From Candidatus Avispirillum sp. (lineage in GTDB: Bacteria; Bacillota; Clostridia; Oscillospirales; CAG-272): a stretch of 56,138 nt of DNA. The notes under the pieces are model-generated. The model did not search any database. It had not been told where the DNA came from and saw only the letters and a program-made list of their open reading frames with translations. Of the stretch, positions 11,083 to 42,700 are shown piece after piece (within the stretch, counting starts at the first letter, position 1; each line of letters begins with the position of its first letter). Location of the stretch: the NCBI GenBank assembly GCA_045636685.1, contig JAZTXZ010000065.1, forward strand, positions 1 to 56,138, in the 5' to 3' direction. A program made the translations under genes and the position numbers.

Positions 11083-11111
11083 ATTGCAAAACTAAATAAA
11101 AAAATGTATAC
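11083..11111 (+). promoter_or_regulatory. sigma-A type promoter candidate
   Basis: TTGCAA-17 nt-TATACT, about 40 nt upstream of the ATG at 11149. Confidence 0.45.
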
Positions 11112-11148
11112 TGTATAGAGAAAAATTTGTTTTAAAAGGACGGTATTT

Positions 11149-13209: not shown

Positions 13210-13220
13210 TCTTCATTGCA

Positions 13221-13340
13221 GTGAAATCCACGCACAGCGTGGGTGAAATCCGCTTCGGGGATCAAATACGCCTTCGGCGCGTGAAATATTTCCTTTGGAA
13301 ATGTGAATGAAGGTTTTCTCCGCTTTTGCGGAGAAAACCA
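13221..13340 (+). repeat. array of five short stem-loops, each preceded by a GTGAAAT-like heptamer
   Basis: Heptamers at 13221, 13243, 13261 (ATCAAAT), 13281 and 13303 (GTGAATG). Each is followed by a different hairpin; two have C(UUCG)G loops and the last has a 12-bp stem. Confidence 0.5.
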
Positions 13341-13370
13341 ATCTCTATTATAAATTGAAAGGGTATTGAT

Positions 13371-14648
13371 ATGATTCTGACAACAGAACAGCAGGCGATA
13401 CTTAATGGCCAGAAGGGCGAGACTATGGCGAAGGTTATGAAGACACTCGTTATGTACGGTGAGACCTTTGGTGCTGAAAGACTTGTGCCTGTAACAAGTG
13501 ACTATAACCACCTTGTAACCTCCTTCGGACTCAAGGTAATGAGCCCTGTATACGATCTTATGGATAAGCTTCTCGAGGCAGGCGTTTCCTCCTCCCAGAA
13601 GTTCTCCGTAGACCCCCGCCCCCTTGATAAGAACGTTCCCGCAAACTTCTTGCAGAACCTTGTTTTCAACAAGTTCATGTATACAAAGCAGGACTTCTAT
13701 GAAGAGCAGCTTAAAAAGCTCGGTCTTATGAACGATAAGGCATTCTCCTGCACATGCTACATGGATGAGGTTGGTAATAAGCCGAAAAAGGGTGAGGTTC
13801 TCAGCTGGGCAGAGTCCAGTGCGGTAGTTTATGCAAACTCCGTTCTTGGCGCTCGCTGCAACCGTAACACCGGTATTATTGATCTTATGGGCTCTATCGT
13901 TGGCTACGTTCCCGAATTCGGTCTTCTTACAGATGAGCGAAGAAAGGCTACCTGGGTAGTTAAGATCGAAACAACAAAGAAGCCCGAGGCACAGCTTCTC
14001 GGTTCCGCTATCGGTATGAAGGTTATGGAAGACGTTCCTTTCGTTGTTGGTCTTGATAAGTGGATCGGTAACGAGCTTAACGATTCTGCATGCACATACC
14101 TTAAGGACTTCGGTGCGGCAACTGCATCTAACGGTGCCGTTGGTCTTTACCATATCGCAAATCTTACTCCCGAGGCAGTAGAGCTTGGCGAGAGCCTTAT
14201 TGCAGAGGGCGCAAAGGAATATGTTATCACAGATGCAGAGCTTGAGAGAGTAAAGAACGAGTATCCTGTAATCTGGAAGAATAAGGATGCAAAGCCCAAG
14301 CTTTGCTTTATGGGATGTCCTCATATGAGCCTCCAGCAGCTCAAGGACTGGACCGATAAGGTTGAAGCAGGTCTTAAGGCATCCGGCAACAAGAAGGTTG
14401 TTATCCCCACAGTATTTACTGCAGCTGACGGCGTTCTTGAGGAGTTCAATAAGACAGAGTATGCAGAGAGACTTAAGAAGACCGGCGTTATCACATCCTA
14501 CATTTGTCCTCTTATGTATATGAATAACCCTCTTTGCAAGAAGATGCCCGTTATCACATCTTCCAATAAGCTTCGTACATATACAACAGCTCGCTATTAT
14601 ACAGATGACGAGATTCTCGAGCAGATCACAAAAGGAGGCAAAAACTGA
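13371..14648 (+). CDS. aconitase X catalytic subunit (DUF521 family)
   Basis: 425 aa. The N-terminus LTTEQQAILNGQKGETMAKVMKTLVMYGETFGAERL is typical of DUF521/AcnX. TGATG overlap with the downstream DUF126-like gene. Confidence 0.75.
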   Translation: MILTTEQQAILNGQKGETMAKVMKTLVMYGETFGAERLVPVTSDYNHLVTSFGLKVMSPVYDLMDKLLEAGVSSSQKFSVDPRPLDKNVPANFLQNLVFNKFMYTKQDFYEEQLKKLGLMNDKAFSCTCYMDEVGNKPKKGEVLSWAESSAVVYANSVLGARCNRNTGIIDLMGSIVGYVPEFGLLTDERRKATWVVKIETTKKPEAQLLGSAIGMKVMEDVPFVVGLDKWIGNELNDSACTYLKDFGAATASNGAVGLYHIANLTPEAVELGESLIAEGAKEYVITDAELERVKNEYPVIWKNKDAKPKLCFMGCPHMSLQQLKDWTDKVEAGLKASGNKKVVIPTVFTAADGVLEEFNKTEYAERLKKTGVITSYICPLMYMNNPLCKKMPVITSSNKLRTYTTARYYTDDEILEQITKGGKN

Positions 14649-15091
14649 TGAAAACATTTCAGGGTAGAGTAGTAACTCCCGGTGAGGTAAGTGCAAAGGC
14701 GCTTGTTTCCCACGGTGGTCTTAATACACTTGCATCCTTCCAGAATGCGCTTCAGTTTGGCGACAAGCAGGCAAAATGCGGCGACCAGAATAACCCCGAT
14801 CTTTATGGAAAGCCTATGGTAGGAACAGCTCTTTGCCTTCCCCAGACAATCGGAAGCACAACAGGCGGCCTTGTTCTTTACTGTGCAGCTGCAATGGGCC
14901 GTCAGCCCGCTTGCATGCTTTTCTCAAAGCCTATCGACTCTCTTGCGGCAGCAGGTGCGATTCTTGCTGACGTATGGGTAGATGGCGTAACAATGCCCGT
15001 TGTTGATTCCCTCGGCGACGAATTCCTCGAATACGTTAAGGATGGAATGAATATTACCGTAAAAGACGGCGGAATTATCGAAGTAGAATAA
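14648..15091 (+). CDS. aconitase X swivel-domain subunit (DUF126 family)
   Basis: 147 aa. Pattern GK..VG.ALCLPQTIGSTTGGLVLY....G.QPA is typical of DUF126. Translationally coupled to the DUF521 gene. Confidence 0.75.
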   Translation: MKTFQGRVVTPGEVSAKALVSHGGLNTLASFQNALQFGDKQAKCGDQNNPDLYGKPMVGTALCLPQTIGSTTGGLVLYCAAAMGRQPACMLFSKPIDSLAAAGAILADVWVDGVTMPVVDSLGDEFLEYVKDGMNITVKDGGIIEVE

Positions 15092-29243: not shown

Positions 29244-30566
29244 ATGAAATCTGTATGGTCGGAAAAATCAGATTTTCCTTCTTTTCCTGTTCTTGAAAGG
29301 GATATAAATATTGAGGTCCTGATAGTAGGAGGAGGTATTGTAGGACTTTTGTGCGCATTAAAGCTAAAAGAAGCAGGCATAGATTGCATACTGGTCGAGT
29401 CCGAAAAAATATGCAGTGGTATAACTCAAAACACTACTGCAAAAATAACAGTACAGCACGGACTCATATACTCAAAATTAATAAAACAGCGGGGAAAGGA
29501 TGTAGCACGGCTATATTTAGAGGCAAATGAAAATGCTCTCGCAGAGTATAAAAGATTATGTGATAATATAGATTGCGACTTCACAGAGAGAGACTCATAT
29601 GTATATTCGCAGACAGGAAATGTGCAGATCAAAGAAGAAGCCGAGGCGCTGAGGTCTCTCGGTAAAGACGCACAGCTGTGCCTTCCGGAAGATTTACCGA
29701 TTAAAATTGCAGAGGCGGTATGCTTGCGAGGGCAAGGACAGTTCGATCCCTTGAAGTTTTTATCAGAGATATCAAAGGGGCTACCTATCTATGAAAATAC
29801 AAAATTTGTTGAGATACGGAATAATACTGCCATAACAAATCACGGGGCTATTAAATTTAAAAAAGTAATAATAGCAACTCATTTTCCCGTTATAAATAAA
29901 CACGGCGGATATTTTTTGAAACTGTATCAGCATCGTTCATATGTGATGGCTCTTGAGGGAGCGCCTCTGTGCCGTGGGATGTATGTTGAAGACAACATTG
30001 ACGGAATGTCTTTTCGTTCCTTTGGCGAACTTTTGTTGATCGGCGGCGGAGGGCACAGAACGGGAAAGTCGGGCGGTGGATACAGTGAGCTTGAGGCATT
30101 TGCAAATAAGTATTATCCTATGGCAAAAATCAAAGCAAAATGGGCGACCCAGGACTGCATGAGCCTTGATGGAGTACCTTATATAGGCAGATATTCAAGG
30201 GAAACTCCGGAAATGTTTGTTGCTACGGGATTTAATAAGTGGGGAATGACGTCATCAATGGTTTCAGCAGAAATATTGTCAGATGCAGTGCAGGGAAGAG
30301 AGAGCAAATATAATGCAGTCTATTCTCCTTCAAGAAGCATTTTAACGCCCCAGCTTGGAAAGAATGCATTAGAATCGCTTCTCGGAATCATAAAACCGAC
30401 TATGCCGCGATGTCCCCATATGGGATGTGCTCTGAAATATAATCCCTATGAGCATTCCTGGGATTGCCCTTGCCACGGCTCAAGATTTACAGAGGAAGGG
30501 AATCTTATAGATAACCCAGCTACTGACGATAAAAAATCAATAAGCAAATACAAAGAAAAACGTTAA
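29244..30566 (+). CDS. FAD-dependent oxidoreductase with C-terminal Rieske [2Fe-2S] domain
   Basis: Dinucleotide fold VLIVGGGIVGLLCALKL. Rieske ligand motif CPHMGC...(x15)...CPCHGSRF. Confidence 0.85.
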   Translation: MKSVWSEKSDFPSFPVLERDINIEVLIVGGGIVGLLCALKLKEAGIDCILVESEKICSGITQNTTAKITVQHGLIYSKLIKQRGKDVARLYLEANENALAEYKRLCDNIDCDFTERDSYVYSQTGNVQIKEEAEALRSLGKDAQLCLPEDLPIKIAEAVCLRGQGQFDPLKFLSEISKGLPIYENTKFVEIRNNTAITNHGAIKFKKVIIATHFPVINKHGGYFLKLYQHRSYVMALEGAPLCRGMYVEDNIDGMSFRSFGELLLIGGGGHRTGKSGGGYSELEAFANKYYPMAKIKAKWATQDCMSLDGVPYIGRYSRETPEMFVATGFNKWGMTSSMVSAEILSDAVQGRESKYNAVYSPSRSILTPQLGKNALESLLGIIKPTMPRCPHMGCALKYNPYEHSWDCPCHGSRFTEEGNLIDNPATDDKKSISKYKEKR

Positions 30567-30807: not shown

Positions 30808-30836
30808 TTGACTAATATTTGAAAATATGTTAATAT
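30808..30836 (+). promoter_or_regulatory. sigma-A type promoter candidate for the four-gene operon
   Basis: TTGACT-17 nt-TAATAT, about 35 nt upstream of the ATG at 30871. Confidence 0.5.
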
Positions 30837-30870
30837 ACACTATATATATTTATTTTTAGGAGTGTGTGCG

Positions 30871-33054
30871 ATGAAGCGGTCTTTAAAAGTACTTTGCGTT
30901 TTACTTGCCACAGTTATATGTGTTTTGCCTCTGATTCCTTTTGTGAACGGAGCTTCTGTATTTCAGCGTCAAAAAAAGAGTATATATCTTGTTCTTGACG
31001 ATTCTTTCAGTATGGTAAATCGCCCGACATACGATGCAAATTATTCATTGCAAACTCTTCTTGCGATGACAGATAAAAACGATTCTGTCAAGCTTTATTT
31101 CTTGAATGAAAAATTTGGCTTGTCCGGAAATATCGAGATGTCCAAAAAGGACAATGATATGCTCTCAAAGGTACATGATAAATATCCTGAGCCTACAGGC
31201 GGTACTCCTTATACGAGTGTTCAAATTGCTCAAAAGGAATTGACAGCTGCAGCATCCGAGGGAGATGAGACCGATTATTGGCTTGTCGTATTTACAGACG
31301 GAGAGTTTTCAATGCCTGCAGGATTGACAACTGAAAATGATCTTCAGACTTTCGCAGATAAAGAGCTTGCAAATGGAACTAAACCCAATGTTTTGTATAT
31401 TACTGTCGGTGGTACAAGTATTAGTAACGGTAATCGTGATAATCTCCACGTTATAGACCACACCAGTATTATCACTGCCATGACTGATGCGGCAAAGGTA
31501 ATATCCGGCCGAATCAATGTTGAAAATGTTAATTATTCCGCAGACGGTAAAGAGCTTACTTTCTCGTTGCCTTATCCTGCTAAGAATATCATCGTATTAA
31601 CTCAGAATACCCGTACAAAGATTACAGATTCAAAGGCAGCATCCGATCTCAATATATCGGAAAACTATACTATCACCTATCCGGAACCCGGCTATGGACT
31701 GGATAAATCTACTGTATGCTTCATAACAGAGAAGAATAACTCCAGCATCGGCTCCGGAGAAGTTACTCTCAAATTTGATAAAGGATTAAATCCTCAAAAT
31801 ACTACTGTACTATTTGAACCTGCCATAGGAATAGTAGCACATTACTATAACAGTGACGGTGCCGAGGTTGATCCCAAGGATCTGTACATCAGTGAGAATT
31901 GCAGAATTGAATTTACGATCTGTGACAGTGAGACCAAGAAGCCGCTTGATATCGGAGCTTTCGGAGGCAATGTAAAGTATTCTTCCGAAGTGGATGGAAT
32001 TAAGGCAGATTCAAATGTCCGTGAATTCACCATCAATAAAGACGAAATTGAAATAGTTCTTTATGCCGAGATGCCCGATGGCTATATTCTGGAAACAAGA
32101 CAAAAATATAATTTTGAAGTAAGCAGAATCATAACATTCACGCTTTCAAACGGAGGTAAGTTTAAAGCTGATATTACCGAGTTGAAAAATGCGGAGGGCA
32201 CACGCGCCGATATCCTTATAAACGGAGCGAGTATTTCATCCGCGGAGTTGAAGGATTTTGAACTCGATATTGAAGGAGAAAACAGTTTCGTTTCAAATTT
32301 CGATATTGAGAAGGATGAGAAAAATGGTGGTTTCATAATCCATCCCAAAAAGGGCTGGATATCGCCCCTTACACCTAAAGATAAAACTTATAAAGTAAAC
32401 CTTACCGATAAATCAACCGGTAAAATCTATACCGCTGACCTTACAGTAGAAATTACTGGCCCGAGAAATTGGATCCCGATTATTGTTTTTGTTCTCATAG
32501 TTGCTCTTATTGTATATCTCATAATAGTATTTGCAACAAAGACATATTTCCCGAAAAATTTGAGATTTGTGCTGTATTTGAATAAGCCTGATTCGGGAGC
32601 CAAAGGTAAGCATGGAATTAAATATACACTAGGAAAGATTTATTGGAATGAATTTACGAAGTGCTTTAAAGGTAATTTTACCTTTTTTGTACATCTGTTC
32701 AAACAGCTGCTCCCCAATACAAGGCAATGTGTAACTTTGTACGGTATAGGCAGCAGGGGGTATTATGACCAAATTACGATCATAGCTAATCTTTCAACTG
32801 TTGTATATGCCGAAGATAAAACTTTGAAGTATAATGAAACCAGTAAAAAATTCAGTTCGGAATATGATGTGTATAACAGCAATTTCATTAAGATCATGGG
32901 CGCTGAAAATCTGACAAAAAAACCGAAATCAAAGGAAAAGCCTCGTTATACAATAGATACAGGAAATGTACTGGTCAGAAAGAAAGTTTCATCTACAAAT
33001 AGTAAAGTATATCTTCACATTACCAGAAAAACAAAAAAGAAATTAAATAAATAA
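30871..33054 (+). CDS. membrane protein with extracytoplasmic von Willebrand factor A (vWA) domain
   Basis: ATG 30871 follows a TAGGAG RBS. Signal/anchor MKRSLKVLCVLLATVICVLPLIPFVNG. MIDAS elements LVLDDSFSM (DxSxS), GGTPYT and VVFTDGEF. Beta-rich middle region, TM WIPIIVFVLIVALIVYLIIVFA, and a basic ~170-aa tail. Confidence 0.75.
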   Translation: MKRSLKVLCVLLATVICVLPLIPFVNGASVFQRQKKSIYLVLDDSFSMVNRPTYDANYSLQTLLAMTDKNDSVKLYFLNEKFGLSGNIEMSKKDNDMLSKVHDKYPEPTGGTPYTSVQIAQKELTAAASEGDETDYWLVVFTDGEFSMPAGLTTENDLQTFADKELANGTKPNVLYITVGGTSISNGNRDNLHVIDHTSIITAMTDAAKVISGRINVENVNYSADGKELTFSLPYPAKNIIVLTQNTRTKITDSKAASDLNISENYTITYPEPGYGLDKSTVCFITEKNNSSIGSGEVTLKFDKGLNPQNTTVLFEPAIGIVAHYYNSDGAEVDPKDLYISENCRIEFTICDSETKKPLDIGAFGGNVKYSSEVDGIKADSNVREFTINKDEIEIVLYAEMPDGYILETRQKYNFEVSRIITFTLSNGGKFKADITELKNAEGTRADILINGASISSAELKDFELDIEGENSFVSNFDIEKDEKNGGFIIHPKKGWISPLTPKDKTYKVNLTDKSTGKIYTADLTVEITGPRNWIPIIVFVLIVALIVYLIIVFATKTYFPKNLRFVLYLNKPDSGAKGKHGIKYTLGKIYWNEFTKCFKGNFTFFVHLFKQLLPNTRQCVTLYGIGSRGYYDQITIIANLSTVVYAEDKTLKYNETSKKFSSEYDVYNSNFIKIMGAENLTKKPKSKEKPRYTIDTGNVLVRKKVSSTNSKVYLHITRKTKKKLNK

Positions 33055-33081
33055 GTTTGTGATTAAAAGGAGTAAAAAAAA

Positions 33082-36000
33082 ATGAGTGCACCTCAAATTG
33101 TTGAAATCAGTAATACCCGTCCAAGACAGGTTCTTCTTGTAGGATTGGGAGGCGTTGGCAGCAGAACAGTAGATACGATTCTGTCCGTAATGCCTGATGA
33201 ATATAAGCCCTACACAACTGCTGTTGCAATTGATACCGATGTTGGCGACCTTGATAAGAGACTGACATATATCCCCAGAGAAAACAGAATATCCTTGGGC
33301 ACAAATCCCAAGAACGGTCAGTCCATAACAGTTGGTAATTATATAAGAAATCATCCGGAAACGGAAGAGTGGTTCCTTAAGGGAGAGCGCGTTGACCTGG
33401 TAAAAAAGAGAAATACCAAGGAGGGCGCAAAGCAGGTAAGAATGGTTTCCCGTATCGCTCTTGCTGCCACCGATGAATACTGCGGTATGACAAAGAAGCT
33501 TGAGGATGTGCTTCAAGGACTGAATAAGGCAGACGGAACTACGATCAGCAGCGGACTCCTTGTTCTGGTAGTTGCCTCCGTTGCAGGAGGTACCGGTGCA
33601 GGTACTGTGCTTCAGTTCCCCCTTTATCTTGAGCAGGCGCTTTCAAGATCATTCCAGGATGACAGCATTCAGATAGAATGTGCTATGCTTCTTCCCAATA
33701 TGTTCAGCCATGTTCATACTTCTCAGAATGCTGCGTCTGCCCGTGCAAATGCATATGCTGTTGTACGTGAACTTATTTCCATGAACAGCAGAAGACTTAA
33801 GAGAGGAGATATTCTTCCCGGCTGTGACTTTGGTAAAAAATCAGAGAATATTTCTCCTTATTCCAGAGTGTATTTCTTTGATGATTGCAGCATTTCCGGC
33901 GATACCATAATGACTGACCTTGATCGCGTATATGTTCCCAAAACAGCCAATGCCCTTAATGAATATCTCTTCGGTGCGGCAAAAGGTAAAATTACAAGCG
34001 ATCTTGATAATACTTTGCAGGCAGTATATGAATCTGAAGGTGCAGCTATATTCTCCGCTTTGGGTTCTGCAGTGCTTGATTATCCCAGGGCTACATATAC
34101 TCAGTATGTGATTGGCAAGTGGATAACAAAGGTTATAGCAAGGGATTGGAGATATGTTGACGAAAAAGTAAATAATCGCTATGCCGAGATCATAAAGAAT
34201 GCTATTGAAAACGGAACAGGAAAGCCTAATAAAGAAAAAACAAAAAGAGCTCTCTACCTTGATATAGTAGGCCGCGAGGATACTCCTTTCTTTAAGGAGA
34301 TCAAAAGATCTTATTTTGTATCTGAAGGTGCGGATGATGAATATGATGAGGATGCTGAAAAGTTAAGCCTTGCACAGTTGTTCTGGAATCGTTGTGAAAA
34401 TCATCTCAGAGACGAGGTGAACAGAAATACAAGATTTACAACTGCAAAGATTGAGCTTGAAAATAATCTCGTTGAAAACGATGTAGGCACATTTATTGAC
34501 AATTTGAAAGAAATTGAGCAGTCAGGCGCTGCACTTCAGTCTGTGGGCTCGCAGTATGAGATGGATGTAGTACGTCCTATGGAAGCTCAGAATGATGTTT
34601 TCTATACATCCCGTAATCGTGTTGAGAAGCATCTTTTCACCTTCCTCAAAAAACATAAGCTTCATCCCATAATGCTCAGATATTTCCTTTGCGAACTTCA
34701 AAAGCTTGCTATGGAAAATTCCGTATTCAATACAGAAGAGTTAAACACTCAGGATTTCAAGGAGCTTAAAACTAAAAGAGATCGCAGAGAACATGCAATA
34801 AATCAATCTGCCAAATTAGATGAAAAAACTGTAAGAAACGTCATTGCAAATTTCGCACAGTATCTTGTTGCTGACCTTGATGAGTATATCAAGGAGTTAG
34901 AGGATATGTTCATGTGCCTTGATTCTGTAATCGGTACATTTGAGACAACTTCCAGAAAGTCTCTTGAGAATCTTACCTTTAGTAATCCTCAGACAGGCGC
35001 TGTGCTTTCAGGCGGTTCTCTTTCCATGAGATATGTATGGAAGCGTATCGAAGATGAGATGAGTAACGGTGCTGATGTGTTCACTGTTGATGAAGAACTG
35101 AACAACAAGCTTCATGAACTAATATATAAAGCATTTTATGGCAGAGTGGGCGACATTCAGTCGTCAAATGGCAACAGTGATGAAGGATTCAGAGTAAGAA
35201 CCAAATATGAGACTATTCTTGCAAGAGAACTTCAGATATATTACTCAAGAATGCTCAATGACAGATATTCCAATATATTCCCCAGTGATGTATTTGATGC
35301 GGCAAGAGTTGAATGCGGTCTCAGAAATGCATATAAGGAGCAGCGCAGTCGTGTTGATGATCCCGGTAAATTCACTGAGCAGGTGTTCATTGATAGGGGC
35401 GGAAGACCTTTGAATTTCGCAACTGAAATTGAGGCACCTGCAGGAATGCAGGATGATGCAAGATATTTGACAGCATTGCTTAATGCAACTATAGCAAATT
35501 CTAAACCCTACAGCGGACGTCTTAAGGATTATATCGATGTAAGCACAGATCAGTACGGAAATACAGACGGTATAAGAACAGACGTTATTGTTAATTCAAG
35601 ATTGCTTCGTACAGAGGCTGATCCTCATAACCTTGATGAATTCGGCGTTGCCAAAGAACGCAGAATCGAGGAGGAGTTTATAGACGGCGTAAGTGCAACC
35701 AGCGTTATGGGTACCGATATACAGACTACTTATGTGGACAGCGGTATCTCTCTTAATCAGATCAAGATTGTAACTTCAATCAGATCATTACAGCCCTTCA
35801 ACTTCGTTGCATTCCTTCCTTCTGACGATGATAAGCATTCTCCCACCAATGGTAAGACTTATTTTGAGTCATACAGAGAGGCAGTTAACGATATTCCGGT
35901 AAAGAATAATGTGATAACACCTCATCTCCATCGCAATTGGCATCTTGCTGATATGCTGGATGATATTACCGATGCACATACCAATACATATAACAGAAGT

Positions 36001-36771
36001 GCAGCTGAAGCTTTTGTGCTTGGATTTATTTTTGATATTATCAGAGTCGGAAGTGACTGTGTTGTTGAAATAGGAAAGCTCCATAATCCTTATTTCTCAA
36101 GAATTTTCGGAGATATGGGTATTAAGCAGTTTGTTCTCCTTGATAAAGTTGCACATGCTTCCGTTGATAACAGCATAAAGCTTGAAGGATGTGAGGTAGG
36201 TGCAAAGCGAGATACAGTAAATGCAGTTCTTGTGGAGATTTATAGTCTTCTTGCATCAACTGATAATCTTAGGGATGCGATCTTCGGTTATGCAACCGAG
36301 CAGTTTAAAGAATATTCTATTAAAAAAGATGTTCAGTTTATCAGAAACTGTATCGAAGATGAGAATATTTCCAACGTTATGTACAACTGTATTCTTGACG
36401 TAATTGACGGCTATTATCAGGGAACCCGTCAGCTTCCTTACAAAGAAGCGTTCCGTGGCGAAACCAATACAGATTATATGGTTAAGGCAGTATTTAAAAA
36501 TCTCTATGAGATGTGCAACCTGTTCAGCAACGAAATTTCTGCTGTTAAGACTATTTACGAAAAGTTTGTAGATAAGCTTTATGATGATTGCTTCTGTGAG
36601 GGGGTAGCAGAGAATATGATCGTTGAATCGCTCGATGAATATGATGAATTAGCAGCAATAGCTAATTCGGTTAACAAGAATAGCGGAACACAGAGTAAGC
36701 CTTTTTCTCCCAACGGTACTTTCAGTCGCAAGAATGCAAAAGATATTTTTAATCAGCTTATAAACGAATAA
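33082..36771 (+). CDS. giant tubulin/FtsZ-superfamily GTPase-like protein (1229 aa)
   Basis: AAGGAG RBS. N-terminus LLVGLGGVGSRTV, AIDTD, EGAKQVRMVSRIAL and VASVAGGTGAGTV, which matches the tubulin/FtsZ signature GGGTG[ST]G. About 900 aa of extension with no TM. Confidence 0.7.
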   Translation: MSAPQIVEISNTRPRQVLLVGLGGVGSRTVDTILSVMPDEYKPYTTAVAIDTDVGDLDKRLTYIPRENRISLGTNPKNGQSITVGNYIRNHPETEEWFLKGERVDLVKKRNTKEGAKQVRMVSRIALAATDEYCGMTKKLEDVLQGLNKADGTTISSGLLVLVVASVAGGTGAGTVLQFPLYLEQALSRSFQDDSIQIECAMLLPNMFSHVHTSQNAASARANAYAVVRELISMNSRRLKRGDILPGCDFGKKSENISPYSRVYFFDDCSISGDTIMTDLDRVYVPKTANALNEYLFGAAKGKITSDLDNTLQAVYESEGAAIFSALGSAVLDYPRATYTQYVIGKWITKVIARDWRYVDEKVNNRYAEIIKNAIENGTGKPNKEKTKRALYLDIVGREDTPFFKEIKRSYFVSEGADDEYDEDAEKLSLAQLFWNRCENHLRDEVNRNTRFTTAKIELENNLVENDVGTFIDNLKEIEQSGAALQSVGSQYEMDVVRPMEAQNDVFYTSRNRVEKHLFTFLKKHKLHPIMLRYFLCELQKLAMENSVFNTEELNTQDFKELKTKRDRREHAINQSAKLDEKTVRNVIANFAQYLVADLDEYIKELEDMFMCLDSVIGTFETTSRKSLENLTFSNPQTGAVLSGGSLSMRYVWKRIEDEMSNGADVFTVDEELNNKLHELIYKAFYGRVGDIQSSNGNSDEGFRVRTKYETILARELQIYYSRMLNDRYSNIFPSDVFDAARVECGLRNAYKEQRSRVDDPGKFTEQVFIDRGGRPLNFATEIEAPAGMQDDARYLTALLNATIANSKPYSGRLKDYIDVSTDQYGNTDGIRTDVIVNSRLLRTEADPHNLDEFGVAKERRIEEEFIDGVSATSVMGTDIQTTYVDSGISLNQIKIVTSIRSLQPFNFVAFLPSDDDKHSPTNGKTYFESYREAVNDIPVKNNVITPHLHRNWHLADMLDDITDAHTNTYNRSAAEAFVLGFIFDIIRVGSDCVVEIGKLHNPYFSRIFGDMGIKQFVLLDKVAHASVDNSIKLEGCEVGAKRDTVNAVLVEIYSLLASTDNLRDAIFGYATEQFKEYSIKKDVQFIRNCIEDENISNVMYNCILDVIDGYYQGTRQLPYKEAFRGETNTDYMVKAVFKNLYEMCNLFSNEISAVKTIYEKFVDKLYDDCFCEGVAENMIVESLDEYDELAAIANSVNKNSGTQSKPFSPNGTFSRKNAKDIFNQLINE

Positions 36772-36789
36772 ATTTAAGGATACCAACTT

Positions 36790-38514
36790 ATGGAAGAACT
36801 CAAAACAGTTGTTATTGTAGACCGCAGAATCTACGAGAAAATCCAACTGTATAGAAGTTTTCTTGAGAGAAGTGAGTTCGAAACTCAATTGTCCGAAACC
36901 CGATTCATATGTGAAGATACAGCTGAGGACTTGTCCTCAGCTGTATCAAATAATATTACGAATTATTTATTTCTGTACGGGTTGATAGACGGTGATGAGT
37001 ATAGGATTCATCGTGATTTGATTATCGATAAGATGAAGAACTATCCCAACTCAAACTTCTATATGATTTTCTGCCAGAATCTGCTTAACGATGAGCCCTA
37101 TGACAATATTGAAAAAGTTAAAGGCTTAGTCTGCAAACCTTTTTGTATAGGAATAGTTGAGGGGGGCGATTTGTCCGATGAAGAAGCTGCTGAAAATCTT
37201 CGTTGTGTGAAGCTTTTGTCTCTTGCTATGGCGATATGTTCGTATAATGATGGCCCCGGAGGGTGCTATGCTCCCGAATACTATTATGTAACAGCTACAA
37301 TAGATGTTAATTGTACGAATGTGTTTTACGCTGCATCCTATGAATTAAGTAAGTTTGCTGAGTCAATTAATAATAAAGTTCAGCAAATCAATGGGCTTGA
37401 AGCCAGCGCTGATAGCATTGCAAAGGAAAAGCCCCACATGTGTACGGGAAACTATGCAGATGCCTCTCAGGCGCTTGAGTCATTGTCGCTACGTGGCTTT
37501 TCCGAATATTCGGATATGAGTGCTATGCGTCGCGAGATGGAGTTCTTGGGTAAGAAATGCGTTACTGTATATGATGATAACATTGCTTCGAAAATAAACA
37601 CAGCACGTTGCGGGCTTGCATTTGCTGAAGAAAAAATCAAACCGACATACGATGTAAATAATAACGGCAATATTTCTGTAGATGTTGATTATAATCTTGC
37701 CAATAGCTATATGTCTATAACGGAAGCCGATGAGGATCAGGTTGCTTCTCCGGATGAACTGCTTGCTCGTCCCGATAATAATATGGGATTTAATGTTGCG
37801 ATGCTGCGTTCAGCTTTGCCTCTTGCAAAGGAATTAGAGAAGTCTCAGTCAACTCAGCCGAAAAAAATATTGCCAATTACCTTGGGTATACTCCTGCTTT
37901 TTGCAGTGTCAGCTGCATCGGCATATATAGTAAGATATTTTATGTCAGGACTGACAGGAGTTGATATGACTGATATCTTGCTTACAATTTGTATTCCTGT
38001 TGCTGTTATACTTTTGATTACTGTAATTGCTTTTTGTATAAGCATATTTCAGAAGAGACAGAAAAAGCAAATATTTAAAGGGCTCTATTCAAAGATTTCA
38101 GCCTTTATAGAAAATACCAAAGATGTTTGTTTGAAAATAAATCAATATATAGATAAATATCTTACCGTTTATTTTAATTATCACATCAAGTATAATCTGA
38201 TCCGAGAGTGTAACGAAAAGGCAGAATATTTGAAAAAGGATATTCTTGCTATTCGCAAAAAGAGCATTCCTTATGAGGATCTTGTAACTACAATGTGCCT
38301 TTTAAATAAAGCGGACATTCCTTATCCTCAAAATAAGGTAGATGAAAACGGAAGTATTGTAAGAACTGTATCTGAAGAGATCATACACAAAATCAAAGAA
38401 AGCTCATCTGATGATAATACCGGTGCAGATGAGCCTCAGAGGCTCTTATCTCCATGGATGACATCCGTGGTAATTGAAACCGGTAGCTTTATTCCAAAAG
38501 AAGAGGAGAGCTGA
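36790..38514 (+). CDS. two-TM membrane protein, function unknown (574 aa)
   Basis: Soluble N-domain of about 355 aa, then a TM hairpin (ILPITLGILLLFAVSAASAYIV and ILLTICIPVAVILLITVIAFCISIF), then a helical acidic C-terminus. The stop is 1 nt from the next ATG. Confidence 0.6.
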   Translation: MEELKTVVIVDRRIYEKIQLYRSFLERSEFETQLSETRFICEDTAEDLSSAVSNNITNYLFLYGLIDGDEYRIHRDLIIDKMKNYPNSNFYMIFCQNLLNDEPYDNIEKVKGLVCKPFCIGIVEGGDLSDEEAAENLRCVKLLSLAMAICSYNDGPGGCYAPEYYYVTATIDVNCTNVFYAASYELSKFAESINNKVQQINGLEASADSIAKEKPHMCTGNYADASQALESLSLRGFSEYSDMSAMRREMEFLGKKCVTVYDDNIASKINTARCGLAFAEEKIKPTYDVNNNGNISVDVDYNLANSYMSITEADEDQVASPDELLARPDNNMGFNVAMLRSALPLAKELEKSQSTQPKKILPITLGILLLFAVSAASAYIVRYFMSGLTGVDMTDILLTICIPVAVILLITVIAFCISIFQKRQKKQIFKGLYSKISAFIENTKDVCLKINQYIDKYLTVYFNYHIKYNLIRECNEKAEYLKKDILAIRKKSIPYEDLVTTMCLLNKADIPYPQNKVDENGSIVRTVSEEIIHKIKESSSDDNTGADEPQRLLSPWMTSVVIETGSFIPKEEES

Positions 38515-38515
38515 T

Positions 38516-41500
38516 ATGAAACCTATTATATTGTTAATATTGGTATGTATAATTGAATTTCTGTTAGCTCCGAAAAAAGAGTATAGATACCGAAATATCG
38601 ATTCTTTGATTGCAGCATTTTTTGTATGGATGGTTGAGATTATTTCTGATATTTTGATATCAATAATCTATCCTGATCTTCAAAATGTTGAGTTATTCTT
38701 CTATCTTGTAATTGCAATACAGGCAATAATCATTATAGGAACTAAACTGATCTCCAAAAGCAATGATTCCTTGGTTAAATACGGAATTCCTCCTAAATAC
38801 ACTGAAGGATTTCGATCTTCTTTTATAGGTGGATTCTACGATTTTGATAAAAGTACTCCCATAGTTTATTCCAAAGGTTTTGTCAATCCTTTGGGAATAT
38901 CGGTTTTGTGCAGTACTGTCATTCTTGCATGTGTCTTCGTATGGCAATCCTATACTTATGATTTGTCAGGAAATACATTGCTTCTTCCTTATTCTTATGC
39001 AGGATTGCTTTCCATTTTGGTTGAGTTTGCGGTATTTTGTCTCGGTGAATCAAAATGGGAGAATCTTCTTAAAAGATACAGAAGCCGTAAGAATTGCACC
39101 AATAAAAGAGAATATGCTAAATCAAGATATTCAGCAGTTGAAAAGTATGGCTATATATTTCTGAAAAACTTTATATATGAGCCTATGAGTATCAACAGGG
39201 CTACTAAGTTCAACTGGAAATCGGATGCATTTAAAAGTTCAATAGTATACTATAATTTTAGTGATCATTCAGAAAGTGAATATACAAGCCAGGAGCATAA
39301 TGCTGCACTTGAATCATTCATTTCGCTTAATAATCTCAGGGTTAACGAGTACTATGTTGCTGCTTACAATCTTATAGACCGAGATCAGAATGTTTTGATC
39401 AAGACACCTTCATATGTTGAGTTTGAGCCTTATCTTGTTTCAATGATAAAGCTCAAAGTTGCAAAAACACAAAAGGTTGTAATGATAGTGAGCAATGATG
39501 AGAAAAAGCAGGCCATTGTTCAGAAGATCAAAGGGGCATTTAACGAGTATTTTGGTTTTGACAGTATTCCTCTTATCACTGAGATCGGTGAATATGCGGA
39601 TATAGAAGAGAGGAAAGCAAAACAAAAAAAGGCTCCTGAGCCACGCAGTGCTCGATCACATCTTGATGCAATTATTCAGAGTAATATCATCAAAGAAGAA
39701 GAGCCGGTCATACCCATAAAGTCTCCGGATGTTGTTATAGCAACATCAGAGGATGTATGTGATCCTGAATATATAGAGCATATAAAAACAATCGTTAAGA
39801 ATCTTGGCTTGATAGTATATTACGATTTTGGCGATTCTGTCCAGGAAGAAACACTTTTTGCCAAAATAGTTCATGCTGTTCTTGATTATGACGATAAAGT
39901 GCCTACACTCTATATGTCTGACGGATTTTTCGATCTGGAGCAGGTCGTAGATAACTTTTTTTCAAAGAGAAATCTGTATAGGATCGTTGTTCCGAGAAAA
40001 CCTTCGAAAGAAAGCTATATAACCGGTTGGAAATCGGAAACTTTAGCTGAGATTCAATCCAGGACAGAACCGGATGCATCAAGAAATATCGGCAATCATA
40101 TCCCTGTTCTGTACGATTGTACAGGTCATACACAAAATGACATGATGATCGTAGAGGACGAATATGACACTTATGCTGAGAATATGTCCAATTTTTCCGG
40201 TTCTAATATTGCACATCGCTTTGACCATCATGTTGGATGGACAGATGTTATTGGTGGAAACAGTGTGATTTGTTCTGTTTCGGACACATATAACAATGCA
40301 GCTCATACATACTTAGCTATGCAGGGTGTAGGCGAAGCAAGTGAATATATCAATATAATTTCAAGACCATATCTGCTCAGAAACTATTTGATGTATCATT
40401 TGAGATATTTTGCTTTAAACCCCGGAGTGTTGTCATCATATTCACCAGGAATGATCAAAACTTCTCGTGCAATATCTTATGAGGCCGTCATCAAGGCTTT
40501 CATAACCGGATGTACTGAAGAACAGATAGAATTGTACATCCAGCAGACATCTCTCCCTGCCATCGGAACACCTGAGGAAAGACTTGAGTCACTTGTTAAG
40601 TGTGCTTTAGGCGGGAAGGCTTCTGTAGCTCCAATAATTACAAAGGATAGTAAAGAACGTTATTATATCGATAAGGATACCTATTCCTGCATTATAGAAA
40701 AGAGCGGGTTGATAGAAAAAATCGAGTTTGTTAATAATAATCAAACTTTTCTTCGTAACAGACGGGATTACAGCTATTTGATACCTCATCAGAAAATTGT
40801 TATCAACGGTATTAAATATACAGTAGAGGCTATCAAAGGAAATCGTGTTGAGATCACTGACTCAAATATTCGAGAGCCTATGTACATTACAAGACCTGTG
40901 CGTACTTGTAATATAAGAGTACAAGAGGAAGAGAACTATGGAAACATAATACAGAACAGCAGTGATACCTCTATTAGCTTCAAAAGATTTGTATGTGATG
41001 TTTCTCTGGACGTATATGGCACTATCATATTTAAAAACAGCTATCATCCGTTCTTTGATGATGAAAGATTTGATTATCAAAAATCATCCGTAAAACAACA
41101 CAGAGAATACGATGATGTTAATGTTTTCTGTATAAAGATAGGAAGCCCCTATATCAACAGCTCAAACCGAACCGAGATAGAGCATTTGTTTGCATTGCTT
41201 ATCAATGAAATGCTCCCAACATTTTTCCCGAAGCATTCTGAGAAAATAATTATCGGATGCAACGGTTGGGTGATAGATCCTGAAATCGGAAACATCATGC
41301 CCAAAACAAAGCATATGATTGCACAAATGAATATAGACGGCATGGAAATGCTGGCTGAAAATGAGATGTGCATCTATGTTCTTGAGGATTCTCCTCTTGA
41401 GACGGGTTTGGTCAACGTATTTTGGCAGGATGAAGAGTTCCGATATATGTTAAAGGTACTTGAAGATTACCTGTATTATCAGGAAACAATACGCAGACAG

Positions 41501-42610
41501 GAGCAGAAGGAATTATTCAGCAAAAATTATAAAGAACATCTGCATCTGCTGAGAAAGATACTTTTGAAGGCAGCAAATGAAACTGTTGAATTCCGCTCAT
41601 CAAGAGATGATTTTGATGTGATGAATTTTAACAGTATCAGAGCTTCGCGTAACAAGTACAATAATATTGATATCAGCAGGAACTTTAATCTTACCTGTGA
41701 TATATGTGGTAAACCCATAATCCGAACATCTTCTCAGAAGGTTGACTATCATTTTTACTCGTATTCTGGCATGGTCAGCTGTATGAACTGCTTCAGTCAG
41801 GCTGTATGCGCGGAAAAGTATTCCCAGGCTGATATAAATGTTCTTGAGGAAACGATCAACAGATGGTTTATGTCCAAATACAACGAGTCTGTCGAAGGAG
41901 GATTTTATAATTATCTGGAGGATGCAGAATTTCTCAATGATCTGGTGGTTGAGCATAACGGTGATCAGAACAGATATATCGTGACTGACGATGCCGATAT
42001 GGACGGTGTATACGGATTGAGCCTTAGTAAGCCTTCTGTTAAGAGCTCAGTCATTTCTTCTCCCAATGCTGAAGGCATTCCTGTAACTATGGGTGACAGT
42101 GGAGTTGAGGTCTATGATAGGGTCCGTTCAGGTTATTATGTTGACGATAACGGTATTCCATTTATTTTTATCCGTGACGGACTTCCGTATAAGAAATATA
42201 TGGGTGTGCTGTGTCACGAGATGACTCACCAGTGGCAGTACGCAAACCTGGATTTTGAGAAGCTTGCAATAGGCGTTCCCAGCGGAAGATCCGATGAATT
42301 CGGCAAGAACATTGATCTTACTTCTATGCGTATTGAAGGCCATGCAGAATGGGAACGAATGCGTTATCTTAGTGCACACGGAACTAATACAGCTCCTTTG
42401 AAAAGGAAGTTGGCAGCTACACAGAATAGTTACGGCATCGGATATGTATGGATGAAAAACATGATGAAGGTCGGACATGATGATTATAGGATTCCTGCTA
42501 ACAGAACTTTCAAATTCATAATGAAGAGGAATTTCTATCAGTTTACAAAGAATTCCTTTGCTTTGATGAAGCTTTACTTCGGAATTAAACCGCCTGACGA
42601 AGAGAATTAA
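38516..42610 (+). CDS. giant polytopic protein with Cys4 zinc ribbon and C-terminal HExxH zincin-like domain (1364 aa)
   Basis: ATG 38516 follows GAGGAGAG and lies 1 nt after the upstream stop. About 5-6 N-terminal TM helices. CDICGKP...CMNCFSQAVC. VLCHEMTHQWQY...EGHAEWE near the C-terminus. Confidence 0.65.
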   Translation: MKPIILLILVCIIEFLLAPKKEYRYRNIDSLIAAFFVWMVEIISDILISIIYPDLQNVELFFYLVIAIQAIIIIGTKLISKSNDSLVKYGIPPKYTEGFRSSFIGGFYDFDKSTPIVYSKGFVNPLGISVLCSTVILACVFVWQSYTYDLSGNTLLLPYSYAGLLSILVEFAVFCLGESKWENLLKRYRSRKNCTNKREYAKSRYSAVEKYGYIFLKNFIYEPMSINRATKFNWKSDAFKSSIVYYNFSDHSESEYTSQEHNAALESFISLNNLRVNEYYVAAYNLIDRDQNVLIKTPSYVEFEPYLVSMIKLKVAKTQKVVMIVSNDEKKQAIVQKIKGAFNEYFGFDSIPLITEIGEYADIEERKAKQKKAPEPRSARSHLDAIIQSNIIKEEEPVIPIKSPDVVIATSEDVCDPEYIEHIKTIVKNLGLIVYYDFGDSVQEETLFAKIVHAVLDYDDKVPTLYMSDGFFDLEQVVDNFFSKRNLYRIVVPRKPSKESYITGWKSETLAEIQSRTEPDASRNIGNHIPVLYDCTGHTQNDMMIVEDEYDTYAENMSNFSGSNIAHRFDHHVGWTDVIGGNSVICSVSDTYNNAAHTYLAMQGVGEASEYINIISRPYLLRNYLMYHLRYFALNPGVLSSYSPGMIKTSRAISYEAVIKAFITGCTEEQIELYIQQTSLPAIGTPEERLESLVKCALGGKASVAPIITKDSKERYYIDKDTYSCIIEKSGLIEKIEFVNNNQTFLRNRRDYSYLIPHQKIVINGIKYTVEAIKGNRVEITDSNIREPMYITRPVRTCNIRVQEEENYGNIIQNSSDTSISFKRFVCDVSLDVYGTIIFKNSYHPFFDDERFDYQKSSVKQHREYDDVNVFCIKIGSPYINSSNRTEIEHLFALLINEMLPTFFPKHSEKIIIGCNGWVIDPEIGNIMPKTKHMIAQMNIDGMEMLAENEMCIYVLEDSPLETGLVNVFWQDEEFRYMLKVLEDYLYYQETIRRQEQKELFSKNYKEHLHLLRKILLKAANETVEFRSSRDDFDVMNFNSIRASRNKYNNIDISRNFNLTCDICGKPIIRTSSQKVDYHFYSYSGMVSCMNCFSQAVCAEKYSQADINVLEETINRWFMSKYNESVEGGFYNYLEDAEFLNDLVVEHNGDQNRYIVTDDADMDGVYGLSLSKPSVKSSVISSPNAEGIPVTMGDSGVEVYDRVRSGYYVDDNGIPFIFIRDGLPYKKYMGVLCHEMTHQWQYANLDFEKLAIGVPSGRSDEFGKNIDLTSMRIEGHAEWERMRYLSAHGTNTAPLKRKLAATQNSYGIGYVWMKNMMKVGHDDYRIPANRTFKFIMKRNFYQFTKNSFALMKLYFGIKPPDEEN

Positions 42611-42662
42611 GGCAAATCGGAAGAAGGCAACATATAAGCAAAATTAAAAATAAGGCGAATAA

Positions 42663-42700
42663 AAAACCTCTGGAGCCGTTTGGCTTCAGAGGTTTTTTTA
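42663..42700. terminator. bidirectional intrinsic terminator between convergent genes
   Basis: Stem CCTCTGGAGCC/GGCTTCAGAGG (one G-U pair), flanked by A6 and T7. Confidence 0.8.

Follow-up and report, generated by a model that had tools for sequence, protein, structure and literature searches.

What does a large bacterial membrane protein do that ends in a zinc-protease motif and is encoded next to a distant relative of tubulin? This question is raised by a four-gene operon (positions 30862-42610) on contig JAZTXZ010000065.1 of Candidatus Avispirillum sp. (assembly GCA_045636685.1); the whole stretch of 56,138 nucleotides that was analyzed is referred to below as the window. The genes, here called A to D, are closely spaced or overlapping, and gene D, the last of them, is the subject of this work. 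We propose, with a rough probability of 0.55, that gene D encodes a membrane-anchored, cytoplasm-facing zinc-metalloprotease subunit of an operon composed of a vWA protein, the tubulin-like GTPase FtsZl1, a protein with two transmembrane segments and gene D itself, the 'B12' component.

Gene D is an uninterrupted open reading frame (ORF) encoding 1364 residues. Its longest stop-to-stop frame opens at TTG 38474, but we placed the start at ATG 38516, since the equivalent methionine is used by all homologues. The stop codon of gene C (TGA, 38512-38514) ends one base before this ATG, ahead of which stands a GAAGAGGAG ribosome-binding site; in homologous loci, genes C and D share a four-base overlap. 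The protein contains a single HExxH motif, HEMTH, and only two CxxC motifs (C1061/C1064 and C1089/C1092), spaced 24 residues apart. EGHAEWE occupies residues 1274-1280, and four segments recalling superfamily 2 (SF2) helicases, NVLIKTPSYVEF, KVVMIVSN, DVVIATSEDV and LIVYYDFGDS, lie within residues 292-441. A previous sequence-only reading of the window had pointed out these features; its coordinates were right to within a few bases, and the ORF, HEMTH, the Cys4 element and EGHAEWE were all confirmed. Its interpretation also largely holds, but it had missed the vWA-FtsZl1 operon context, which was described in 2010.

FtsZl1 was defined by Makarova and Koonin (2010, Biol Direct 5:33; PMC2875224), who reported operons in which vWA and FtsZl1 genes are joined by lineage-specific genes for membrane partners; the role they suggested was in membrane remodeling. 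In Additional file 5 of that paper, Ruminococcus lactaris harbors RUMLAC_01529 (vWA, COG2304, 732 residues), RUMLAC_01528 (FtsZl1, 1136 residues), RUMLAC_01527 ('B5', 678 residues) and RUMLAC_01526 ('B12'), and the same gene order is found in Pseudoflavonifractor capillosus (BACCAP_04124 to BACCAP_04121, the last being 'B12'). The proteins of these cassettes measure about 730-860 (vWA), 1140-1180 (FtsZl1), 660-680 (B5) and 1420-1435 residues (B12), their order is that of genes A to D, and both B12 proteins come from the same phylum as the window organism. By order and by make-up, as described in the 2010 table, gene D is the B12 component of an FtsZl1 system; the B12 features that it carries are five transmembrane segments, a conserved Cys4 and HExxH...E.

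Within this group, the close family of gene D is a rarer branch. A search of 5.8 billion clustered proteins returned 17 clusters only, with 41-69% identity over the full length and no functional name among them. Among approximately 185,000 species genomes (one genome per species), the close family was present in 8 species only, which belong to the Oscillospiraceae, the Acutalibacteraceae, Ruminococcus sp. and unclassified Clostridia genome bins. Residues 196-1364, used as the query of an exhaustive profile search, reached much further: at E ≤ 1e-3 there were 429 representatives, of which 180 remained at E ≤ 1e-10. Most are 1250-1450 residues long and share the layout of gene D. A human-gut clade of about 1440 residues, comprising at least 236 clusters (one with 654 sequences), is homologous to gene D, and its cassette is the same. 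Neither Pfam nor NCBIfam has a model for this family, gene D itself gave no NCBIfam match, and where source names were given they all read 'hypothetical protein'.

We then asked which residues are retained at such distances. Conservation was counted in 170 full-length representatives, aligned to a common profile and with overall identities extending below 20%. C1061, C1064, C1089, C1092, H1234, E1235, H1238 and E1274 are invariant in the 17 close-family members. Across the 170 relatives, each of the four cysteines is kept in 166, in line with the Cys4 element that had been read from the two CxxC motifs, while H1234, E1235 and H1238 are kept in 161, 165 and 162, respectively. The residues following HExxH are equally stable (W1240 in 166/170, Q1241 in 164/170), as are E1274 and G1275 (165/170 each), Y1306 (157/170) and G1309 (160/170). 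Because the Cys4, HExxH and E1274 are conserved in 161-166 of the 170 relatives, these motifs are not chance features.

An AlphaFold2 model of residues 1000-1364 placed the peptidase part at high confidence (predicted local distance difference test score, pLDDT, of 85-96). HEMTH lies in model helix 226-245 (pLDDT about 89), and a short beta strand then leads to another long helix (model helix 272-288), which has E1274 at its beginning; as modeled, these two helices have the expected zincin arrangement. Furthermore, a profile built from 24 diverse peptidase domains of the family matched M1 aminopeptidases (IRAP, APN and ERAP1) with E values of 4e-4 and above, aligning HELTHxW with HELAHQW and 'EGHA' with 'NEGFA', whose glutamate serves M1 enzymes as their third zinc ligand. 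When the 24 domains were compared singly with Pfam, all of them gave weak matches to DUF6782, a putative metallopeptidase family (24/24, best E = 7e-8), and there were further weak matches to BSP (15/24), M78/IrrE (13/24), M1 (12/24), DA1-like (6), SprT-like (6) and WLM (2). Hence, the gluzincin-type HExxH...E layout that had been suggested for gene D is supported by the M1 profile and by DUF6782, whereas the accompanying suggestion of a SprT/ImmA-like layout finds weak support in the M78 and SprT-like matches.

These families are similar to gene D in that M1 aminopeptidases, DUF6782, BSP and M78/IrrE likewise combine an HExxH helix with a downstream glutamate in an 'EG(H/F/M)A' helix. However, M1 enzymes follow HExxH-x18-E, whereas the spacing from HExxH to the glutamate is 35 residues in gene D; only the zinc-site region of about 50 residues can be aligned, and gene D lacks the N- and C-terminal domains of the aminopeptidases. 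SPRTN, Wss1 and SprT, as well as DA1, also carry a zinc-binding module beside an HExxH zincin, but the domain order differs from that of SPRTN, the weak matches fall far below threshold, and nothing in gene D points to a dependence on DNA or ubiquitin. The YGxGY motif could supply the catalytic tyrosine of a gluzincin. On the strength of the profiles and the conserved motifs, we conclude that gene D probably ends in a gluzincin with a complete catalytic set that stands outside all curated families.

The Cys4 element gave weak, sub-threshold matches to the eL43/L37a zinc ribbons in the PDB and to the Lar and IS1595 zinc-ribbon families in Pfam. Together, the zinc ribbon and the complete HExxH...E predict two zinc sites and an active peptidase. 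A DUF1998/MZB relationship for residues 885-1095 plus the Cys4 is a motif resemblance without sequence signal and serves as a lead only; 16 diverse relatives gave no match to DUF1998 in Pfam or to MrfA in PDB-profile searches.

Hydropathy analysis of the N terminus revealed five hydrophobic segments (residues 1-23, 28-53, 55-82, 121-146 and 155-177), as expected from the membrane-spanning helices noted earlier. In 16 homologues, the mean number of lysines plus arginines was 3.5 in loop 1, 0.2 in loop 2, 8.9 in loop 3, 0.4 in loop 4 and 9.5 in the stretch after the fifth segment. This alternation, seen family-wide, fits the positive-inside rule and thus places the N terminus outside and the remaining approximately 1190 residues in the cytoplasm, a predicted topology that we regard as strongly supported. 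The cytoplasm would also be a fitting place for a Cys4 zinc site and for a partner that is tubulin-like and GTP-dependent. Within the anchor, R24 in the first cytoplasmic loop and E170, a glutamate buried in the fifth helix, are kept in 150/170 and 151/170 distant relatives, respectively, which suggests a specific contact or an ion site inside the membrane bundle.

Between the anchor and the zinc ribbon, the sequence-only reading had offered, as speculation, an SF2/RecA-like module. We modeled residues 196-1035 with AlphaFold2, template-free and from 17 sequences (mean pLDDT 65.5); confidence was 80-90 at residues 240-490, below 50 at residues 494-646 and mostly 60-90 beyond. Compared with the PDB by Foldseek, this model gave 28 matches at E ≤ 1e-3, and all among the matches listed were SF2 helicases. 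MrfA (PDB 6ZNP) came first, with E = 1.5e-17 over 823 columns; Hel308/Hjm matched at about 1e-5, and further matches were DEAD-box proteins, Mtr4, RecQ, RecG, Mfd and HamB. Isolated DEAD domains superposed on the model with template modeling scores (TM-scores) of 0.56-0.63, and two-domain helicases aligned over more than 420 columns despite the low-confidence second RecA-like domain (RecA2). NVLIKTPSYVEF and the three segments that follow it sit, in the model, on RecA-like strand-loop-helix elements carrying motifs I, Ia, Ib and II. As modeled, the core consists of tandem RecA-like domains, of which the first (RecA1) is confident and RecA2 is low-confidence, and the structural matches strongly support an MrfA-like SF2 helicase architecture for the central 800 residues or so, in favor of the earlier speculation.

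Such a helicase would be dead. At the motif I position, no G/K/T pattern of a Walker A (GxGKT/S) was found in any of the 170 relatives, and the position of the P-loop is occupied by a conserved loop, K-T-P-S-Y-V-E-F, after the first strand. The expression GxxxxGK[ST] had three matches in 187 sequences, all elsewhere in the proteins and attributable to chance. Similarly, the 170 relatives are devoid of a DExD/H box: in gene D the strand LGLIVYY is followed by D-F-G-D-S, and only 99/170 relatives have an acidic residue (E or D) at position 437, never with ExD/H after it. Judged on the modeled motif positions, the core is unable to bind ATP canonically throughout the superfamily, as had been guessed when an inactivated NTPase scaffold was proposed. 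Since the motifs for ATP binding and hydrolysis are missing from every relative, the core would be a scaffold or binding module rather than a motor. The replacement loop is conserved, and SxPYLLRxY is the best-conserved motif of the core (R622 within it is kept in 167/170), which argues that the core has a function of its own. The adjoining module at residues 885-1020 also contains residues that are invariant across the superfamily sample (E898, P905, E957 and G964). We found no mention of a helicase-like core of B12 in the literature or in the 2010 table, and this annotation appears to be new.

MrfA/YprA (a DUF1998 SF2 DExH helicase; PDB 6ZNP, 6ZNQ and 6ZNS) is the best structural neighbor of the central 840 residues. 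MrfA has a Cys4 zinc site after its helicase core, and so does gene D. In contrast to MrfA, gene D lacks the Walker A and DExH motifs, sequence similarity and a Pfam DUF1998 match, and it has additional transmembrane helices and a peptidase. FtsH (AAA+ plus M41) shows the same order of parts, namely a transmembrane anchor, a cytoplasmic module of P-loop fold and a C-terminal HExxH zincin, and can be considered a functional analogy. However, the middle part of gene D is SF2 helicase-like rather than AAA+ and cannot, according to the model, bind ATP, and nothing in the protein suggests a hexameric ring or an unfoldase activity. Taken together, these features lead us to infer a scaffolded, membrane-tethered effector or processing protease.

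A further line of evidence is genomic linkage. The order A-B-C-D was found in 12/12 full-length close-family loci with differing flanks; gene C was too diverged for tblastn in 3 of these 12, and a thirteenth contig begins inside gene B. The same order occurs in Neobacillus and Alteribacter (Bacillaceae), where D is only about 20% identical to the target. To quantify the association, we used 8 loci from the genome scan, 80 from metagenomes and 1 from a viral contig, and 51 of these include 5.5 kb or more of sequence ahead of the predicted start of D. FtsZl1 was located upstream and on the same strand in 46 of these 51 informative loci, usually preceded by the vWA gene.

Several observations weigh against the reading of gene D as a metalloprotease subunit of an FtsZl1 system, and we collect them here. 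The best Pfam match of gene D itself, to DUF6782, scored 16.5-20.1 bits, below the gathering cut-off of 27. Foldseek searches with the C-terminal model (residues 1000-1364) returned no PDB match at E ≤ 0.001 (DPP III and FtsH appeared at E > 1) and no significant match among viral structures; a disordered linker (residues 1136-1212, pLDDT below 50) may have hurt this search. As the fold search gave nothing significant, the zincin call rests on the sequence profiles, which do support it. Concerning the core, helicase similarity was not found by sequence in Pfam, NCBIfam, PADLOC or PDB-sequence profile searches, so that its assignment comes from a predicted structure only, made from 17 sequences at a mean pLDDT of 65.5 and with RecA2 below 50. 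Likewise, PDB sequences searched with profiles of the whole protein and of diverse alignments yielded no helicase or peptidase but chance or weak zinc-ribbon matches. The zinc site is not universal either: about 9 of the 170 relatives lack one zinc-binding histidine, and in the full-length relative P0076 HExxH is replaced by YELVR, while the Cys4 and the remaining architecture are kept; judged by its sequence, P0076 is probably a protease-dead variant. FtsZl1 was not upstream in 5/51 loci, and it was not found near a 552-residue soluble relative from human-gut metagenomes (L034, L038 and L054), which indicates that the module is able to work in other settings. Finally, we found no experimental work on any member of the FtsZl1 systems in the literature.

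The coordinates of the features are compiled in Table 1.

Table 1. Features of the operon and of the gene D product in the 56,138-nucleotide window.
Feature	Position	Strand	Description and basis
Promoter-like site	30808..30836	+	TTGACT-17-TAATAT with TG; consensus match only, weak
Gene A	30862..33054	+	730 residues; signal peptide, extracellular vWA-like domain, one transmembrane segment (residues 531-564), basic cytoplasmic tail
Gene B	33082..36771	+	1229 residues; FtsZl1-type tubulin-like GTPase (residues 18-352), long C-terminal region
Gene C	36790..38514	+	574 residues; cytoplasmic N-domain, two transmembrane segments (residues 358-424), C-terminal domain; 'B5' position
Gene D (target)	38516..42610	+	1364 residues; position and make-up as family 'B12'
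Predicted five-helix transmembrane bundle	38516..39046	+	Residues 1-177, N-out/C-in; hydropathy, lysine plus arginine per loop
Small N-terminal subdomain and RecA1-like domain	39233..39988	+	Residues 240-491; AlphaFold2, Foldseek
Putative RecA2-like domain	39995..40453	+	Residues 494-646, SxPYLLRxY at its end; low-confidence model
Helical and beta-rich accessory domains	40463..41143	+	Residues 650-876; AlphaFold2 secondary structure, pLDDT mostly 60-90
Conserved alpha/beta module	41168..41575	+	Residues 885-1020; LLNEMLPTFFP, IYxxEDS..G and EDYL motifs; conservation
Cys4 zinc ribbon	41696..41791	+	C1061, C1064, C1089, C1092; conservation, weak profile matches
Predicted gluzincin-type metallopeptidase domain	42155..42592	+	Residues 1214-1359; model, profile, conservation
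HEMTH	42215-42229	+	Residues 1234-1238, in peptidase domain
E1274	42335-42337	+	In peptidase domain
YGxGY	Residues 1306-1310		In peptidase domain
Terminator-like hairpin	42661..42698	+	Strong hairpin; 17-bp stem and T run; past operon end

How these parts would act together can be outlined as follows. The four proteins may form one transmembrane machine, in which the vWA domain, with its metal ion-dependent adhesion site (MIDAS), would bind something outside the cell and FtsZl1 would assemble on the inner side of the membrane in a GTP-dependent manner. D would use its dead helicase core to dock a partner, for which FtsZl1, a nucleic acid and the tails of A and C are candidates, and docking would position or gate the protease. 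Cleavage of a partner or of a cellular protein would then be the output of the system. A transglutaminase-like domain is fused after the zincin in five relatives (P0007, P0008, P0068, P0110 and P0147), and these repeated fusions of a second peptidase-like domain suggest that the C terminus is the output end. Another relative, P0081, contains an N-terminal Cu_amine_oxidN1 domain and a subtilase S8 domain.

The proteins encoded upstream of gene D differ in how readily they can be assigned. Gene B matches Tubulin_2 (PF13809) in Pfam with E = 1.2e-35. In gene A, Pfam did not detect a vWA domain even at E ≤ 1; the call is based on the MIDAS motifs (DDSFS at residues 46-50, GGT at 113-115 and TDG at 155-157), on its equivalent being assigned to COG2304 in 2010, and on homology between loci: each full-length cassette examined has a gene A homologue at this position. 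Gene C is fast-evolving and had no match in Pfam, NCBIfam or PADLOC; for all four proteins, NCBIfam yielded no useful match. The promoter-like site ahead of gene A is one found, where shuffled sequences gave 2.0 expected. A DAO/Rieske oxidoreductase gene (29244-30566) was considered as a member of the operon and rejected, as it is not conserved beside the cassette. The GC content of the operon is 38.3%, compared to 42.4% in the rest of the window, and its third-position GC (GC3) is likewise lower, at about 0.35, whereas the flanking genes reach 0.54. Such values would fit a horizontally acquired operon.

Could the cassette serve in conflict? Firmicutes systems with a tubulin and a vWA protein have been placed among GTPase-centered conflict systems (Kaur et al. 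2020, eLife 9:e52696; PMC7159879 section 29). The GAP1-N2 systems of Firmicutes and Actinobacteria described there likewise combine a tubulin with a long C-terminal region and a membrane protein with an extracellular vWA domain, but their description mentions no B12-like protease. By analogy, the cassette would be an anti-phage or anti-invader system: the vWA protein would sense an extracellular or envelope event, FtsZl1 would set a nucleoside triphosphate-dependent threshold, and D would be a toxic effector whose protease, joined in some relatives by a transglutaminase-like domain, would degrade host or invader proteins, leading to abortive infection. We regard this as possible but tentative. 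It would be in good agreement with the patchy distribution (8 of about 185,000 species genomes), the differing neighborhoods, the low GC content, the effector-like domains that vary at the C terminus, the presence of the defense or repair helicases MrfA and HamB among the structural neighbors, and the inclusion of tubulin and vWA systems among those of Kaur et al. A Csm6-like gene after D in Alteribacter and a short relative beside type III CRISPR genes also point in this direction, although the CRISPR adjacency amounts in effect to one locus type. On the other side, none of the four proteins matched PADLOC-DB v2 at E ≤ 0.01, and the flanks, in the window as in most loci, are housekeeping genes rather than defense islands. 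The GAP1-type GTPase that defines the systems of Kaur et al. is absent here: with Pfam and NCBIfam, no GAP1, TRAFAC GTPase or FNIII-repeat protein was recognized in the four cassette proteins. Viral contigs, with their single locus, are uninformative either way.

The loci concerned deserve a closer description. In Alteribacter natronophilus (L005, 13921-15417), a gene of the Csm6_6H/Cas_Cas02710 family is located directly 3' of the D homologue. The 552-residue relative (L034, 9935-11590) is equivalent to residues 755-1310 of gene D only and comprises the beta-rich domain, the zinc ribbon and the zincin; it adjoins type III CRISPR genes encoding a Cas10 palm domain and three RAMP proteins, and two WYL/WCX regulators and a transglutaminase-like surface protein are encoded nearby. 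The idea of a phage gene family was rejected, as the scan of viral contigs gave one locus only. This sole match in the viral collection (L094, IMGVR_UViG_3300029447_000476, its viral classification being as listed by the source) encodes a D homologue of 1367 residues and has a 659-residue ORF at the position of gene C, with no FtsZl1 detectable in 6.9 kb upstream.

The original proposal of Makarova and Koonin (2010) would give D a quieter task. According to this cytoskeletal or membrane-remodeling view, D would be a membrane anchor and regulator of FtsZl1 filaments, as FtsA, ZipA and SepF are for FtsZ, with a housekeeping-type accessory role, and, when the envelope or vesicles are remodeled, its protease would trim FtsZl1 or the vWA protein or turn them over. 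The tight, nearly universal linkage to FtsZl1, the fact that all three partners are membrane proteins and the housekeeping context speak for it, and so does the FtsK/SpoIIIE-family gene found 3' of D in 20/80 metagenome loci, another cell-division-type NTPase. However, the sporadic distribution speaks against a core cell-biological role, the contact between D and FtsZl1 is putative, and an anchor role leaves the fully conserved catalytic site and the peptidase-like fusions unexplained. We hold this alternative to be about as likely as the conflict reading, possible but tentative.

The FtsK/SpoIIIE-type addition itself occurs in one human-gut clade (including L025, L030, L048, L050, L051 and L053). 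In L077 (12661-16200), for instance, a gene for an ATPase of 1179 residues overlaps the D stop codon, resulting in a five-gene cassette; L086 harbors C, D and the FtsK-like gene and has no vWA or FtsZl1 gene upstream, and the cassette of the window is without an FtsK/SpoIIIE-family gene. FtsZl1 is encoded by one gene of about 1150-1230 residues in other cassettes, and in Neobacillus sp. (L004, 4451-7809) it was called as two genes, of 638 (Tubulin_2) and 462 residues.

A further possibility is that the protease is gated by nucleic acid. The dead core would then have kept the nucleic-acid surface of SF2 helicases, and DNA or RNA at the membrane would switch on the zinc ribbon-zincin unit, in a manner resembling the DNA-dependent proteases SPRTN and Wss1. 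MrfA, the best structural neighbor, was solved bound to DNA; a zinc ribbon stands beside the zincin, some relatives have weak SprT-like and WLM matches, and in one clade D is coupled to an FtsK/SpoIIIE-family ATPase, a family that includes DNA pumps. Nevertheless, the contact motifs Ia, Ib, IV and V cannot be recognized by sequence, and the SprT-like and WLM matches are far below threshold, which makes this reading unlikely in our opinion. Lastly, it is highly improbable that the HExxH domain is a non-catalytic relic in a purely structural protein: the loss of the motif in a few relatives (YELVR in P0076, and about 9/170) and the missing structural match to a solved peptidase would fit, but between 157 and 165 of the 170 relatives, at below 20% overall identity, retain the two histidines, both glutamates and YGxGY, which is unexpected for residues without function.

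We therefore retain the tethered zinc protease of the FtsZl1 operon as our reading of gene D. More speculatively, and with a good deal of reserve, the cassette might be an undescribed, self-contained transmembrane signaling or immunity machine. Its tethered protease would be under the control of an extracellular MIDAS sensor and of a tubulin-like polymer, acting through a dead MrfA-like scaffold that might also read nucleic acid; the scaffold-protease module would have been reused with FtsK/SpoIIIE and beside type III CRISPR.

Apart from the operon, the part of the window with the highest GC content (11092-14696) has two pairs of long ORFs that overlap on opposite strands: 11092-13131(-) of 679 residues with 11149-13209(+) of 686 residues, and 13128-14696(-) of 522 residues with 13371-14648(+) of 425 residues.

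The gene D family was already listed in 2010; new here are the dead-helicase annotation, the statistics of the linkage to FtsZl1 and the occurrence in Bacillaceae. Few branches of the tubulin/FtsZ superfamily are as divergent as FtsZl1, and its largest partner now has a full domain map, consisting of a transmembrane anchor, a dead SF2 scaffold, a zinc ribbon and an active-looking gluzincin, as predicted from models, profiles and conservation. With 46/51 loci, the partnership between FtsZl1 and B12 is near-obligate. The carriers among the Bacillaceae, Neobacillus and Alteribacter, should be easier to grow and to manipulate than the uncultured gut carriers of the close family, and their cassettes could offer a route to the role of a bacterial tubulin homologue outside cell division.

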